Below, piece after piece: positions 25,715 to 43,805 of a stretch of 64,000 nt of DNA. Origin of the DNA: Candidatus Cloacimonadaceae bacterium (GTDB taxonomy: Bacteria > Cloacimonadota > Cloacimonadia > Cloacimonadales > TCS61). Within the stretch, counting starts at the first letter, position 1; each line of letters starts with the position of its first letter. The notes under the pieces are model-generated. The model searched no databases. It was not told the DNA's origin and was given only the letters and a program-made list of their open reading frames with translations. A program made the translations under genes and the position numbers. Location of the stretch: positions 7,661-71,660 of the forward strand of contig CALOBL010000013.1 of the NCBI GenBank assembly GCA_942491655.1, read 5' to 3'.

Positions 25715-28252
25715 ATGAAAGTTACTGATATTTTGTTTATTATTTTTTTATCATTTCTTATAATTAATCTTAATGCTGCAGAGAAAATGGTAGTACGTTT
25801 TAATGAACCCAACTTGCAGATCGTGCGGGAATTTCGTAATGATCAGCACGATGTGGCTTCTTACAGACCGGGAGAATATCTAGATATCGTAGTAACCGAA
25901 TCCTTTTATAATGAGCTCAAAGCACGCGGTCTGGATATTTCCATTACCCAGACGGAAGCGCAATTGAAAGAGAATCTTCAATCCACCCGTGAACTGGATG
26001 GTTATCAGACACATGCTGAGATCAATGGTCAGATGCTTTTGTATTCCTACCTTTATCCTGATATCTGTGAACTGCATGTACTGGGTGATACGTGGGGTAA
26101 AACCTATTATGAAGCAGGAAATGATAATTATTATGACTATGATCAGGAGATCTGGGGACTGAAATTATCTGATAATGTTTCCGAAGAAGAAGATGAACCA
26201 TGTGTTTATTATTTCGGAGCTCATCATGCTAGAGAACCCATCAGCGCAGAAATGACGATGACAATTCTGGATCATTTGCTTTCTAATTATGGTACAGATC
26301 CTGAGATAACCGAAAGCATAAATTCAACCCAGATCTGGTTCATTCCTGTTGTAAATCCCAACGGGCACAAGATCGTAACAGATGAACTGGATGTCTGGTG
26401 GAGAAAAAATATCCGGGACAATAACGAGAACGGCATGTTGGATGAAGAAGATTATGGTGACTATCTGGATGGAGTTGATCCCAACCGTAATTACGGATTT
26501 GAATGGGGTCTGGTTGGAGCTTCAGACCTTTGGGAAAGTCAAACCTATCACGGTCCTGGTCCAATTTCCGAACCGGAGAACCAGGTTGTGGCAGAGCTTA
26601 TCGGAGCTCATCATTTTATCGCCGGCATCAGCTATCATACTCATGGAGAATGGGTACTATTTCCTTATGGTTACAGCGACGGTGTAATGGCCCCGGATCA
26701 TGACGCTCTGCAGGAACTTGCCGTTGCCATGGCGGAACAGATACCTTCTCAGGATTATGGATATTATACACCAGCCGAAGCCTGGGGTTTGTATCCCTGT
26801 ATGGGAACCCTCGATGATTATGCCTATGGGGTCAGAGGTATTTTCTCTTATACCATTGAAATGGCAACTCAGTTCATTCCTCCAGCTGCTAATGTTCCCT
26901 TGATCTGTGAAGACAATCTTGACGCCGCATTAACTTTATTAGATAGAAAAAATCACTCCATTTTAACCGGGCACGTTACTGACAATGCAACTGATCTTCC
27001 TCTGGTAGCTGAGATATTTATCGAGGGCATTGATAACTCCGAAGAATTCCGTTACCCGTATCTTTCCAATGAACTCTATGGCTCTTATTACAGGCTTCTT
27101 ACCGATGGTTTTTACGATGTGACCATTTCTGCTTATGGTTATAGCTCACAAACTTTTGAAAATATTGAAATAACTTCTGCTGAGCAGACTATCCTGAACG
27201 CAGCATTAGATCCTGTACCCTATACTTTTCTTTCCGGAAATGTTTATAATGCTGATACAATTGAACCGGTGGAAAATTGCCGGATAGAAATCATTGATAC
27301 ACCATTGGAAGCCGTTTTCACTAATTCTGAAGGAGCATACGAATTCTCTGATGTTGCCGTTGATACTTACCAAGTTCTACTTACGGCAGCAGGTTTCTCT
27401 TCCCGTTTGGAAAGTATAACCCTGGAAGAAGAAGATAATGTTATAAATTTTGTGCTGGAAGTTTCGGAAGCTGAAAGTTTTGAACTGACTGAATTCGGCT
27501 ATGAATGGTCCTCAATCGGGGATGCCGATTGGTTCATAGATAACAATGAATCTTATGACGGATTCCATTCCGCTCGTTCCGGAATTATCGGCAGTATGGA
27601 ATCAACTTCTCTTCTCATAACACTTAATGTTATTGAAGAAGATGAAATAAGCTTTTATAAAAAAGTCTCCTGTGAAGATGATACCAGCAACGATAATTTC
27701 GACTACCTGCTCTTCCTGATAGATGATATTGAAATGGGACGTTGGGATGGTGAAATAGACTGGAGTCTTGAAACTTTCACAGTATCGGCAGGGCAGCATA
27801 CTTTTGAATGGCGTTACGAGAAGGATGGCTATGTATCTTCCGGTTCAGACTGTGCCTGGATCGATTACGTCGAGCTTCCTGAATATGATAATACCTCAAG
27901 CCAGGAAACCGAAGATTCACCTGTAAGCATGAAGTTGTTCGGTAATTACCCGAATCCATTTAATCCGGAAACAGTAATTTCCTTTAGTTTAAACACCCGT
28001 CTTCGTTCCAATGATGGAAACTACGCCGGGCAGGCTGAGAACACGGAGTTGTGTATTTATAATGCGAAAGGACAGAGAGTTAAATCTTTCTTTTTATCCT
28101 TCGACTCCGCTCAGGATGACCAGGAAAGCAGCAGAAAAGTTATCTGGGATGGAACTAATGATGCCGGCCAGCCAGTCTCTTCCGGGATTTATTTTTACAA
28201 ATTACAATCAGGAGATAAAAGCCTTACCCGAAAAATGGTATTAATGAAATAA
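25715..28252 (+). CDS. Secreted M14 zinc carboxypeptidase with CarboxypepD_reg-like domains, a jelly-roll-like module and T9SS CTD
   Basis: Signal peptide; zinc/catalytic motifs GAHHAREPIS, NPNGH, DPNRNY, SYHTHGE; C-terminal NYPNPFNPETVISFSL...GIYFYKL...RKMVLMK with repeat-derived loop inserts. Confidence 0.85.
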   Translation: MKVTDILFIIFLSFLIINLNAAEKMVVRFNEPNLQIVREFRNDQHDVASYRPGEYLDIVVTESFYNELKARGLDISITQTEAQLKENLQSTRELDGYQTHAEINGQMLLYSYLYPDICELHVLGDTWGKTYYEAGNDNYYDYDQEIWGLKLSDNVSEEEDEPCVYYFGAHHAREPISAEMTMTILDHLLSNYGTDPEITESINSTQIWFIPVVNPNGHKIVTDELDVWWRKNIRDNNENGMLDEEDYGDYLDGVDPNRNYGFEWGLVGASDLWESQTYHGPGPISEPENQVVAELIGAHHFIAGISYHTHGEWVLFPYGYSDGVMAPDHDALQELAVAMAEQIPSQDYGYYTPAEAWGLYPCMGTLDDYAYGVRGIFSYTIEMATQFIPPAANVPLICEDNLDAALTLLDRKNHSILTGHVTDNATDLPLVAEIFIEGIDNSEEFRYPYLSNELYGSYYRLLTDGFYDVTISAYGYSSQTFENIEITSAEQTILNAALDPVPYTFLSGNVYNADTIEPVENCRIEIIDTPLEAVFTNSEGAYEFSDVAVDTYQVLLTAAGFSSRLESITLEEEDNVINFVLEVSEAESFELTEFGYEWSSIGDADWFIDNNESYDGFHSARSGIIGSMESTSLLITLNVIEEDEISFYKKVSCEDDTSNDNFDYLLFLIDDIEMGRWDGEIDWSLETFTVSAGQHTFEWRYEKDGYVSSGSDCAWIDYVELPEYDNTSSQETEDSPVSMKLFGNYPNPFNPETVISFSLNTRLRSNDGNYAGQAENTELCIYNAKGQRVKSFFLSFDSAQDDQESSRKVIWDGTNDAGQPVSSGIYFYKLQSGDKSLTRKMVLMK

Positions 28253-28299
28253 ACCTGATAAAGTTGAATCGCTCGTAGTTTATAGACTGAGAGGTTTTT

Positions 28300-41273: not shown

Positions 41274-41298
41274 AAAATCAATTGGAGTTTTGAGGGTT

Positions 41299-43805
41299 AT
41301 GAAAGGAAAATTTTTACTACTGTCTATACTGTTGCTGGCCGTCAGTTTTGTTTCAGCCGGTGAATTTGATAAAAATGAGCTACTCTACCAGAATCCCATC
41401 CTGGGGCATTATCTTTCTGTAGAGGAAATTGGACACTCTGAACAACAGGGATTTCTATGAAACTGATCCACCTGAAGGACCGATTCACAATATCGCTGAA
41501 TTTGAACCGATGCAGGGCGTACTGGTGCGCTACCCCTTTGGCATTCCCTATTCATTGATAGCTGAAATGTCTCAGGAAACAACTGTAACCACAATAGTTA
41601 CAGGACAATCAGAAGAAAATACAGTGTTGAATATATACAACAGTAACGGCGTTGATACAGATAACTGTAATTTCCTGTATGCGCAGTCCGATTCTTATTG
41701 GACCAGAGATTATGGTCCCTGGTACGCGATCGATGGTAACGGTGAATTCGGCATTGTGAATTTCCCTTACAACAGGCCACGCCCAAATGATAATGATATA
41801 CCCCTCGAAATGGCGGAGTTTCTCGATATCAATGTCTTTGGCATGGATATCTACCATACTGGTGGGAATTATATGACTGACGGAATGGGAATTTCCGCTT
41901 CCACCGATCTGGTTCTTGATGAAAATCCTTCTCTTTCCCAGGATGAAATTAACCAGTTAATGGAAGATTATCTGGGCATTCATACCTATTATGCTATTCC
42001 GGACCCCAATAATACTTATATCGATCATATTGACTGCTGGGGAAAATTCCTGGCAGTCGACAAAGTTCTGATCCGCTCAGTTCCCGAGTCTCATCCTCAG
42101 TATGACGAGATCGAAGCAGTAGTTTCCTTCTTTGCTGAACAAACATCTTCTTATGGTACTCTTTATGAAGTCTACCGGGTTTATACTCCTTCCAATCAAC
42201 CTTATACAAACTCACTCATCCTGAACGACAGAGTTTTTGTTCCCATTACAAATTCCAGTTACGATGATGAAGCTTTAGCCGCTTATGAAGAAGCAATGCC
42301 CGGTTATGAAGTATTAGGGTTTTATTCTAACAGCTGGGAATCAACTGATGCTCTTCATTGCCGCACAAAAGGCGTTGCCGATCTGGGCATGCTTTATATC
42401 CACCACATTCCAGTACAAGGTGAACAACCAGCCAATGTTGATATTGAGATTTCCGCAGAGATAACTGCCTACAGCGATGAGGCTATTTATTCGGATTCAG
42501 TATTGGTCTATTATAAATTGAATGATAACCCTTACACTCCTCTTTCGATGATCAATACCGAGGGGAATATCTTTACAGCCTATATCCCGGCCGCATCACA
42601 TGAAGATGTGATCTCCTATTATATCCATGCTGCCGATGCTTCCGGGCGCAGCAACAATCACCCCCTTATAGGTGCCCCTGATCCACATATCTATTACGTG
42701 GTTCAGTACCCTGAAATTTCTGTTAATATTGATGAGATAGAAGTTACCCTGCAACCGGATCAGACTGCTGATGGCACTTTCAACCTTACCAACAGCGGGG
42801 GTGGCTTCCTGGAATACCAGATCTTTACTATAGATACTACCGAGCAGACCAGAGATATTACCGGATCGTACATTTCCTGCAGTGCTGCAAATTATGAACC
42901 AGGTGCAACAACTGACTGGACCTTTACCATTTTTAATAACAGTAATGATGATGAATGGTTGAATCAGGTGATGATTGATTTCCCGGCTGGTGTATATCGT
43001 TAACTCTGCCACAGATTTCATAGGTGGTTCCGGAGGAGATCTTGTCTTCGACGGTATGGTAGGTGAAGGTGTATCTCTAACCTGGTTCGGGCAGACAGCA
43101 ATGGGTTATGGTGTTATTCACGATGGCGAATCTGCTTCCATGGAAGTAAATGTTACATTAGACTCCGATCTGATGAGTGACCTACTATTCGATTATCAGA
43201 TCAACGGCGATGAATATGGCAGCGAACCTCACATTGTGAATGGACAGATTATGATAGATGGTCAGGGTGATCCTGCTGATTGGATCTCACTTGATCCTGT
43301 CAGTGGCGAGATCATAGCTGGAAATTATGACATCATCAACTACCAGATCGATTCAGCTTCCTTAACAGAAGGTGTTTATACCTGCGATATTTTAATAACT
43401 GGAAACGCTGTAGCTGATCACCTGATACCGGTTACACTTATTGTTAGTGGAACATCAGCTGAAGATAACCTGCCTGCTGCTATTACTCAGTTGAGCAATT
43501 ATCCTAATCCTTTCAATCCTGAAACAACAATATCTTTTTTCTTAAACACAGAGCTCACCCGTCTTCGTTCTGATTCTCAGGACTTCGCCGGGCAGGCGGA
43601 GAACACGGAGTTGGTAATCTATAATTTGAAGGGCCAGAAAGTGAAAGATCTCACCGACTCACTCACTCCTCAACCCACTAACCCCTACTCAGTAACCTGG
43701 AATGGTACCGACGATAACGGAAATTCGGTTCCTTCCGGAATCTATTATTACAGGTTAAAAACCGGTTCAGCTTCACTCACAAAAAAAATGCTCTTGCTGA
43801 AATAA
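41299..43805 (+). CDS. Secreted PAD_porph-family deiminase (PPAD / agmatine deiminase family) with Ig-like region, shared pre-CTD module and T9SS CTD; two frameshifts (about 41447 and 42995)
   Basis: The signal-peptide ORF MKGKFLLLSILLLAVSFVSA (41299-41460) shifts into ORF 41429-43003. Motifs AEFEPMQGVL, YWTRDYGPW, NRPRPNDNDIP, HTGGNYMTDG, IDHIDCW and TDALHCRTKG (catalytic Cys context). The second shift lies at FPAGV/IVNSATDFIGGSGGD. The CTD ends at 43805. Confidence 0.75.

Follow-up and report, generated by a model that had tools for sequence, protein, structure and literature searches.

In-frame palindromic elements in genes have a precedent in the Rickettsia palindromic elements (RPEs) and other MITEs within genes (miniature inverted-repeat transposable elements): RPEs are short palindromes that lie between genes as well as in frame in open reading frames (ORFs), where they add extra peptides compatible with the protein fold, with several families per genome, and MITEs, which are small and non-autonomous with inverted-repeat ends, can extend or disrupt ORFs (PMC10969869). 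Here we describe repeats of this general kind in a stretch of 64,000 nucleotides from a Candidatus Cloacimonadaceae bacterium (contig CALOBL010000013.1, positions 7,661 to 71,660; from here on, the window), where they lie in the C-terminal sorting domains (CTDs) of proteins of the type IX secretion system (T9SS). Two loops of these CTDs are expanded, and the explanation that we consider probable is that the expansions are small non-autonomous palindromic repeats, DNA similar to RPEs, MITEs or repetitive extragenic palindromic (REP) sequences, which lie in the CTD coding sequence, are translated as extra residues, and have been retained and spread.

We distinguish four repeat families. Family A, the first-loop element, has the outline GTCTTCG...CGCCGGGCAGG, with conserved ends (NGTCTTCG(C/T)...(C/T)(T/A)CGCC(R)(R)GNCAGGC), a variable central hairpin and imperfect inverted repeats at its ends (CCTGTCTTCGC / GCCAAGTCAGG). 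Family B is the 27-nt hairpin of the second loop, with the consensus (T)GTCAYCC-TGAGC(N3-4)GTCGAA-GGRTGAC (hairpin strand GTCAYCCTGAGC..GTCGAAGGRTGAC). Family C consists of tandem 9-nt units that translate as TTELTESTE, and family D is a MITE-like palindrome of ~80 nt with the ends GGYTCCTAAAC...GTTTAGGAACC. No Rfam family covers A, B, C or D.

Like RPEs, these families are found in intergenic DNA as well as in frame, at sites that the fold allows, a likeness that we regard as functional analogy and not as homology. RPEs, however, measure ~100-150 bp, are confined to Rickettsia and enter many unrelated genes, whereas the elements described here are 27-70 nt long and, in this window, concentrate in two loops of one domain type, and family B is found across very diverse bacteria. 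Family B resembles REP and REPIN elements, being an imperfect palindrome of the 20-40-nt class with a covariation-supported stem, present as single copies and as inverted pairs of convergent copies. As a rule, REPs are confined to one lineage and lie outside genes, whereas B is found on contigs of 29-71% G+C (among the matches listed) and enters ORFs; it starts with (T)GTCAYCC and has no GTAG head, and the window ORFs scanned include no REP-associated tyrosine transposase (RAYT, a Y1 transposase). Family D and the long forms of A share inverted-repeat ends with MITEs such as ERIC, BOX, Correia and the cyanobacterial elements, but we saw no clear target-site duplication here, the window holds no parent insertion sequence, and B is much shorter. 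Some loop fillers also recall the short tandemly repeated repetitive (STRR) sequences of cyanobacteria, as they consist of short tandem units (9 nt in the first loop; 21 and 18 nt in the second loops of L254 and L255, L numbers denoting contigs from other samples or sources and P numbers database proteins); the likeness is one of description only, and the units here have lengths divisible by three and sit within coding sequence. The host domain itself fits the T9SS type A CTD (TIGR04183 / PF18962), since it scores above cutoffs, is C-terminal, has a predicted Ig-like sandwich and keeps the NPFNP, SGIYFY and KKMxLLK motifs, and it departs from the canonical form, with 19 aa in each of two segments, in that both loops appear enlarged by repeat-derived sequence. 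We found no report of repeat-derived CTD loop expansion in literature searches, and neither a search by topic, combining T9SS CTDs with palindromic repeats, nor string searches on the B DNA and its peptides returned anything relevant.

Ten T9SS type A CTDs are present in the window (39% G+C), all of them on the + strand, and they are named here by the positions of their NPFNP motifs (7813, 11874, 14515, 27950, 31144, 33947, 37351, 40998, 43503 and 47325). They match Por_Secre_tail/FlgD_ig and TIGR04183, the latter above its cutoff. The CTD forms the end of the ORF throughout, 3' of M14, S8, C25 and peptidyl-arginine deiminase (PAD)-type domains and other cargo; the exceptions are an orphan remnant at 3795-4232 and two CTDs cut by a stop or a frameshift. 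The CTDs with expanded loops are the following:

27938-28252, + strand: T9SS type A CTD (27950) of an M14 carboxypeptidase (gene 25715-28252), identified by Pfam and TIGR04183 matches, segment lengths, a structure model and PDB folds.
31132-31504, + strand: CTD (31144) of an S8 peptidase (ORF 28300-31407), with its frame broken within the second loop.
33935-34218, + strand: CTD (33947) of a second M14 peptidase (ORF 31532-34069), with an in-frame TGA in the second loop.
40986-41273, + strand: CTD (40998) of a C25 (gingipain-like) peptidase (37803-41273), identified by domain matches and segment lengths.
43491-43805, + strand: CTD (43503) of a PAD-type enzyme (ORF 42975-43805, split from 41429-43003), identified by domain matches and segment lengths.

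As a reference we used 125 CTDs, a sample unbiased for loop content because the proteins were found through their S8 or M14 domains. The first segment, from PNPF to IYN, is 19 aa long in 96 of these 125 CTDs, and the second, from G(KGQ) to W.G, is 19 aa long in 101. In the five CTDs listed above, the first and second segments measure 31/24, 29/44, 21/23, 21/25 and 34/21 aa, respectively, while those of the other five window CTDs keep 19/19-20 aa, which bears out the division into five expanded and five clean CTDs that a first-pass annotation of this DNA had proposed. The same annotation had read the first-loop fillers as expansions, and the first segment is indeed longer in all five, with TTESNEGTEL and TTELTESTEL adding just 2 aa. 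The segment-length statistics also rule out the idea that B substitutes for canonical loop residues instead of adding to them. Insert-bearing CTDs still reach 35.2, 29.0 and 42.1 bits against TIGR04183 (cutoff, 23), and some of the Pfam matches to window CTDs fall below the gathering score because of the inserts.

The AlphaFold2 model of CTD 27950 has a mean predicted local distance difference test (pLDDT) score of 82.9 and six main strands (residues 20-26, 44-49, 55-61, 73-78, 91-99 and 102-110), with a short one at 6-8. The PDB structures whose folds it matches best are those of PorU (6za2), PorZ (5m11) and the CTD of mirolase (8qb1), all three of which bear a T9SS CTD. The extra residues, 27-43 and 62-72, form loops with a pLDDT of ~58-66, so that the inserts are predicted to occupy low-confidence surface loops, beta1-beta2 and beta3-beta4, of an otherwise confident Ig-like beta-sandwich. 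Together, the fixed canonical lengths and the loop positions in the model indicate that the expansions are real and lie in these two loops. A third recurrent CTD expansion, of 6-8 residues with the motif (A/S)GAGRSP, lies right behind NPFNP in ~4% of the unbiased sample (P0052, P0123, P0126, P0204 and P0257; proteins only).

The strongest link between the loops and dispersed repeats is provided by family B. A metagenome scan for the B core retrieved at least 120 stretches, and a profile was trained solely on 130 metagenome copies, which are unrelated and lie outside CTDs. Against the window, this profile scored 28.5 bits (E=5e-8) at 28121-28095 on the - strand and 23.5 bits (E=2e-6) at 31287-31312 on the + strand, whereas the best score per sequence in 20 dinucleotide shuffles never exceeded 14.9 bits (median, ~5.5 bits). 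Chance resemblance between low-complexity sequences, which would have undone the first-pass proposal, is therefore not what we see for B. Weaker matches fell at 41112-41133, 31353-31337 and 4090-4102, and every one of the top five lies in the second loop of a CTD. At 28.5 bits the highest-scoring copy is intact (genuine copies have a median of 30.3), and decayed ones score 7-9 bits. Besides the split copy in the orphan remnant treated below, the B sites in the window are these:

28095-28121, - strand: antisense B in the beta3-beta4 loop of CTD 27950, read as FDSAQDD and found with the independent B profile.
31288-31363, + strand: B doublet of CTD 31144, composed of B(+) at 31288-31312, a spacer and B(-) at 31337-31363; it corresponds to the 91-nt element of the first-pass annotation.
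41112-41137, + strand: decayed B(+) in the second loop of CTD 40998, read as RHTEFIEV (8.6 bits; 82% identical to 31289-31316).
21631-21654, + strand: degenerate intergenic B fragment of the TTTATCGAAGG subtype (5.8 bits at 21640-21654).

The last of these is the sole intergenic B candidate of the window. A match to tttatcgaagg had been noticed there, at 21640, and it is plausible as a degenerate copy of B, but it is not significant alone (14 nt, E=0.8).

Readings of B recur in the second loops of CTDs in many database proteins, as VILSGVEG/VILSLSKD, CHPEFIEG, FDSAQDD and PSTxLRMT. Convergent doublets translate there as CHPEFIEG...PSTTLRMTQ, and such doublets also occupy the second loop of CTDs in the window, in L033/L034 and in L035. 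The frame of B that always holds a TGA was never observed in CTD proteins, and the other five frames are stop-free in 37-89% of copies. As one DNA is read in several frames and orientations at the same loop, protein-level conservation is ruled out as the source of the likeness. Outside CTDs, most of the sampled metagenome copies (among the matches listed) are extragenic, and B also lies in frame within genes for an IleRS-type class I tRNA synthetase, MetRS, an RNase D-like exonuclease (as a doublet) and RecF. Neighboring copies within 200 nt form nine convergent pairs versus one divergent pair among the matches listed. B is a cross-phylum hairpin repeat that enters coding sequence and seems not to have been described.

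B was also seen in 98 stretches of IMG/VR viral contigs (L156-L253), and some viral contigs of 24-40 kb hold five to eight copies, such as IMGVR_UViG_3300035388_000083 (L172, L184, L199 and L230). On the short contig L143, a B doublet is accompanied by an Acido-Lenti-1 RNA (311-356; Rfam RF01687, 51 bits). A link between B-like repeats and small GIY-YIG genes, with a GIY-YIG nuclease as the candidate mobiliser of B, was not supported: a small GIY-YIG gene (1156-1450) lies between two direct B copies (954-976 and 1509-1531) on L147, the sole case in ~2.2 Mb of B-containing sequence examined, while none was found at the other 119 metagenome loci among the matches listed or in any of the 98 viral stretches.

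Family A occurs in the window at six sites, two intergenic and four in CTDs, counts that come from one 64-kb window:

27998-28035, + strand: short form in the beta1-beta2 loop of CTD 27950, in frame (RLRSNDGNYAGQA).
43560-43597, + strand: first-loop copy of CTD 43503, in frame (RLRSDSQDFAGQA) and embedded in family C units.
31192-31223, + strand: degenerate remnant in the first loop of CTD 31144 (SLRSTMGKLKA).
21696-21763, + strand: full-length intergenic copy.
34437-34470, - strand: short intergenic copy downstream of CTD 33947.
4024-4089, - strand: copy in reverse orientation in the orphan CTD, nested in B.

The two in-frame copies are 82% identical to each other (E of ~1e-11; 2e-11 for 43560-43597 against the copy at 27994). 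Between loop and intergenic copies the similarity is lower, as a profile of the non-loop copies finds 27990-28038 with an E of 0.013 and a profile of the loop copies finds 34475-34431 with an E of 0.025.

Families C and D contribute fewer sites:

33989-34015, + strand: family C filler in the first loop of CTD 33947 (TTESNEGTE), adding 2 aa.
41040-41066, + strand: family C filler in the first loop of CTD 40998 (TTELTESTE), matching the intergenic copy at 12425-12454.
12425-12454, - strand: intergenic copy of family C.
378-457, + strand: intergenic copy of family D, 80 nt long and 96% complementary to an inverted copy at 21355-21434.
3924-3990, + strand: family D in the second loop of the remnant CTD, 91% complementary to 21362-21428.

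The family C filler at 41038-41070 aligns with 12451-12426 over 26 nt at 85% identity (E=0.001), and a degenerate C pattern finds those two sites alone in 1.35 Mb of compared sequence. The first-pass observation is thus confirmed, with the corrections given in this account. Shorter hairpins with family D ends were noted at 476-510, 614-665 and 21458-21512. Tandem repeats fill the loops of CTDs elsewhere: 9-nt units are frequent in first loops (TENTE, NEQNEQ and AKDAK), and second loops of other CTDs hold 21-nt units (PMTNDQC, 2.5 copies) or 18-nt units (SNLQINKSPNQQ). The short-tandem loops located in other contigs are the following:

L254, ~290-350: short-tandem CTD loop.
L255, ~5535-5575: short-tandem CTD loop.
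L032, ~1810-1850: short-tandem CTD loop.

Both CTD loops appear to be generally hypervariable, hairpin insertion being one route only.

That the loop expansions are insertions and not parts of the domain, as had been proposed, is supported at the sequence level by the fixed lengths described above, by the mixed orientations and frames of B, by nesting, and by relatives that lack the inserts. In the S8 orthologue on L032, the first loop lacks the clean 24-nt block corresponding to 31192-31223 and the second loop has a different filler; in P0122 (61% amino acid identity) the two segments measure 20/20 aa. The M14 orthologues P0242 and P0243 (63% and 60%) have the canonical 19/19. The comparison of orthologous CTDs called for in the first-pass annotation therefore finds the closest S8 and M14 orthologues without these inserts. 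CTD 40998 provides an empty site within the window, as its first loop (...GAGCTCACTGAGAGCACGGAA) is equivalent to the one of CTD 43503 (...GAGCTCACC, then A, then GGAGAACACGGAG) without A.

The number of events seems to differ between families. Several independent events are needed for B, judging from its two orientations, several frames, TTTA versus CGGAG spacer subtypes, singlets and doublets, and intact-to-decayed scores. A occupies one first-loop site, in one frame and orientation, in three window CTDs, in L254 (a Cloacimonetes metagenome-assembled genome [MAG]) and in L255, and paralogues are as similar to each other in A (69-74% identity) as in the flanks. This combination suggests an old insertion passed down in a CTD lineage, not repeated landings. 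The two loops had been called permissive landing sites; tolerance agrees with their modeled position as low-confidence surface loops, while five independent landings do not agree with the inheritance of A.

An eleventh CTD combines several of the families. It is an orphan that abuts a divergent TonB-dependent receptor gene starting at 3732, and it contains three nested or adjacent repeats (D, B and A):

3795-4232, + strand: orphan, decayed CTD pseudogene without an upstream cargo ORF (E=6e-8 to CTD 27950).
4010-4102, + strand: B(+) split by a nested 66-nt A, with the B 5' half at 4010-4023, A at 4024-4089 and the B 3' half at 4090-4102.

The segment 4024-4103 had been taken for an intergenic copy; it is in fact part of the second loop of this decayed CTD. 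When 4024-4089 is taken out in silico, GTAATCCAGAGCGG and AGTCGAAGGGTCA come together and the B score climbs from 6.8 to 12.3 bits (E drops from 0.4 to 0.007), which indicates that A sits within B, which in turn lies in a CTD loop, with D closely upstream. We also considered whether the intergenic repeats are decayed CTD fragments and rejected it: CTD DNA has no intergenic matches except 3795-4232 and 8182-8202. The latter, a 21-nt fragment of a CTD 3' end, lies within 8182-8216, a copy of the final codons of CTDs 7813 and 11874 (GAAGATNCTGTTGTTGAGGTG) that lies 115 nt downstream of the 8067 stop. A stand-alone CTD ORF of 121 aa was seen on L031 (P0066).

Two of the insert-bearing CTDs are broken, both in the second loop and with otherwise intact distal parts. 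In CTD 31144, the frame is lost and the distal CTD goes on in the +1 frame to 31501, so the first-pass description of the 91-nt element as in frame has to be reversed. The doublet is homologous to the in-frame doublets of P0016, P0039 and P0137, with which it shares the spacer motif SVY..NA.SPS. Compared with P0016 and P0137, it has 2 nt more in a C run (31353-31355) and 1 nt less in an A run (31376-31379), differences that together shift the distal CTD to the +1 frame. P0121, which is 100% identical to the S8 product, is annotated with the same truncated end. In CTD 33947, an in-frame TGA (34067-34069) is followed by the distal CTD in the same frame. Both disruptions may be young pseudogenes or homopolymer assembly errors. 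Two PAD-type genes of the window appear split as well, into overlapping ORFs in different frames (41429-43003 / 42975-43805 and 43829-44311 / 44016-45215 / 45282-45851); these are either pseudogenes or assembly indel errors, which bears on the frame break in CTD 31144.

Under the explanation that we favor, a few insertion events into the two loops would have been followed by inheritance of the copies, which would have reached further cargo genes together with the CTD module, itself highly paralogous. The repeats would persist because the CTD would be a tag removed after export, and the function of the CTD would rest on the NPFNP, SGIYFY and KKMxLLK motifs rather than on the two loops. A copy within an ORF would be lost only through precise in-frame deletion, which may protect it. 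Copies bearing a stop or a frameshift would lead to truncated CTDs, possibly 31144 and 33947, and eventually to orphan remnants such as 3795-4232.

Several observations weigh against this explanation. Among the window ORFs scanned there were no transposase, RAYT or nuclease genes and no insertion sequence; as the window also shows no clear target-site duplication (the A-in-B junction has an ambiguous 2-nt GG and no other candidate), we infer the mobility of the elements. The likeness between loop and intergenic copies of A is real but modest support, marginal in the window (E of 0.01-0.03), and the recurrence of A at the same site and frame in three organisms could equally reflect site-specific targeting. 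The independent profile found no intact B in the ~8.5 kb of intergenic DNA of the window, an absence that random insertion with passive tolerance does not predict. The folding energy of the window hairpins does not stand out from shuffled sequence (z of ~ -1 to +0.5), and the structural support for B comes from covariation alone.

An alternative is that CTD loops are actively targeted hot spots of integration or recombination, with hairpins homing to CTD 3' regions or to hairpins already there. Insertion, excision or slippage would then put the tag alternately into and out of its reading frame, so that secretion would be phase-variable, or drive CTD shuffling. We consider this unlikely, although passive tolerance does not explain why the top five B matches of the window all lie in CTD second loops and none in intergenic DNA. 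B-encoded peptides occur in 6 of 176 CTDs versus none in the ~169,000 aa upstream of the CTD in the same proteins, and further points in its favor are the clustering of D, B and A in the remnant and of A within C units, the shared first-loop site of A in three organisms, and the breakage of two CTDs exactly in the second loop with intact distal parts. However, the distance from B to the conserved GTTAAA codons varies (11, 13 and 17 nt) and a single T is conserved in the flank, which argues against a nucleotide-level target. None of the 131 metagenome copies among the matches listed lies in a CTD, and several are in unrelated genes, which is in line with an absence of homing specific to CTDs. 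Two homopolymer indels, which may be assembly errors, account for the broken frame of CTD 31144. The S8 orthologues give no mosaic signal either: between the window gene and L032, nucleotide identity is 73-75% in the cargo, 67-72% in the 5' part of the CTD and 83% in its 3' part, and because the cargo is 73-75% identical, the last value reflects stronger conservation and not a replaced 5' part. The first-pass suggestion that the repeats are recombination substrates for swapping CTD ends, tested on this S8/L032 pair, found no support.

The enrichment of B in CTDs could have several contributors, namely spread with the paralogous CTD module, protection of copies within ORFs from imprecise deletion, and an insertion preference, for example for existing hairpins. 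We are equally doubtful about the broader form of the targeting idea, that CTD loops are preferred sites of integration or retention for small hairpin elements, with B colonizing coding sequence in stop-free frames. If it were true, insertion, excision or slippage would act as a built-in switch or diversifier of exported proteases in T9SS-rich bacteria.

We also weighed whether B is a functional structured RNA or a protein-binding site in the 3' part of CTD-cargo mRNAs, acting in stability, pausing or localization, instead of selfish DNA. The stem covaries strongly: in 130 copies among the matches listed, the Y of the 5' arm pairs with the base behind GG as T:A in 81, C:G in 38, T:G in 10 and otherwise in 1 (Fisher p of ~3e-23), and the 10 T:G against 0 C:A pairs indicate that only one of the strands forms the structure. 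Contigs over the wide G+C range given above share a conserved loop sequence, and single copies in CTDs are mostly in sense orientation. Against this, antisense copies and doublets occur in CTDs too (28095-28121 and P0329), copies inside other genes run both ways, ~95% of CTDs have no B, decayed copies are common, and Rfam gives no match, all of which makes a functional RNA quite improbable.

Even less probable, in our opinion, is that the loop sequences are ancestral variants of CTD subfamilies, conserved at the protein level only, with an intergenic likeness due to low-complexity chance. Fillers of the TTENTE type, which lengthen the loop by just 1-2 aa and occur frequently in one CTD subfamily, would suit such a history, as would A-type first loops and CHPEFIEG-type second loops recurring in the same frame in several organisms and the marginal E-values of A in the window. 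For B the idea is contradicted by the scores that a profile of non-CTD copies gives to the window CTD loops, and four frames or orientations at the same loop go beyond what protein-level selection can produce; the insert-free close orthologues and the nesting of A within B do not fit it either. Finally, that assembly or binning of the MAG produced the pattern artificially is hardly credible, since for all the frameshift-split genes of the window and the homopolymer runs at the 31144 break, the same elements lie in CTD loops of independent contigs (L031, L033/L034, L035, L254 and L255) and many database proteins, so that an artefact is contradicted for the inserts themselves and may apply only to the two frame disruptions.

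Regarding the surroundings of these CTDs, the nearest relatives of the window proteins belong to Cloacimonadota- and Marinimicrobia-type MAGs; relatives in the scan of genome contigs did not exceed 55% identity, with a top whole-protein match of 48%. No T9SS core genes lie within the 64-kb window. A large tetratricopeptide repeat (TPR) protein with the PIN domain of the TPR-GreAB-C-PIN system (PF20698) is encoded at 17816-21157 and adjoins the repeat-rich intergenic region 21158-21900. A direct duplication of 231 nt (24141-24371 / 24404-24634; 91% identical) lies beside tRNA-Arg(TCG) (24620-24696, - strand), and its second copy overlaps the tRNA gene at the 3' end; an integrated element could have left it as a scar, or it could be an attachment site that was duplicated.

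In the reading of the loops as inserted palindromic repeats, what we describe is a known habit of selfish repeats, settling in frame, at what would be a new host site, the disposable sorting tag of the T9SS. The inserts would mark the dispensable parts of the CTD, as the two loops appear to tolerate from 2 to ~25 extra arbitrary residues, which may be useful for the engineering of CTD tags. They carry a cost for annotation, since insert-bearing CTDs score lower on family profiles, some of them below the Pfam gathering score, and in "hypothetical proteins" peptides like FDSAQDD, CHPEFIEG, VILSGVEG and LRMTQ trace back to one DNA hairpin in different frames. A further outcome of the analysis is a 27-nt hairpin repeat of very wide distribution that settles in frame in essential genes. 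If its enrichment in CTD loops reflects targeting and not tolerance, it would represent a new bacterial way to vary the repertoire of secreted proteases.

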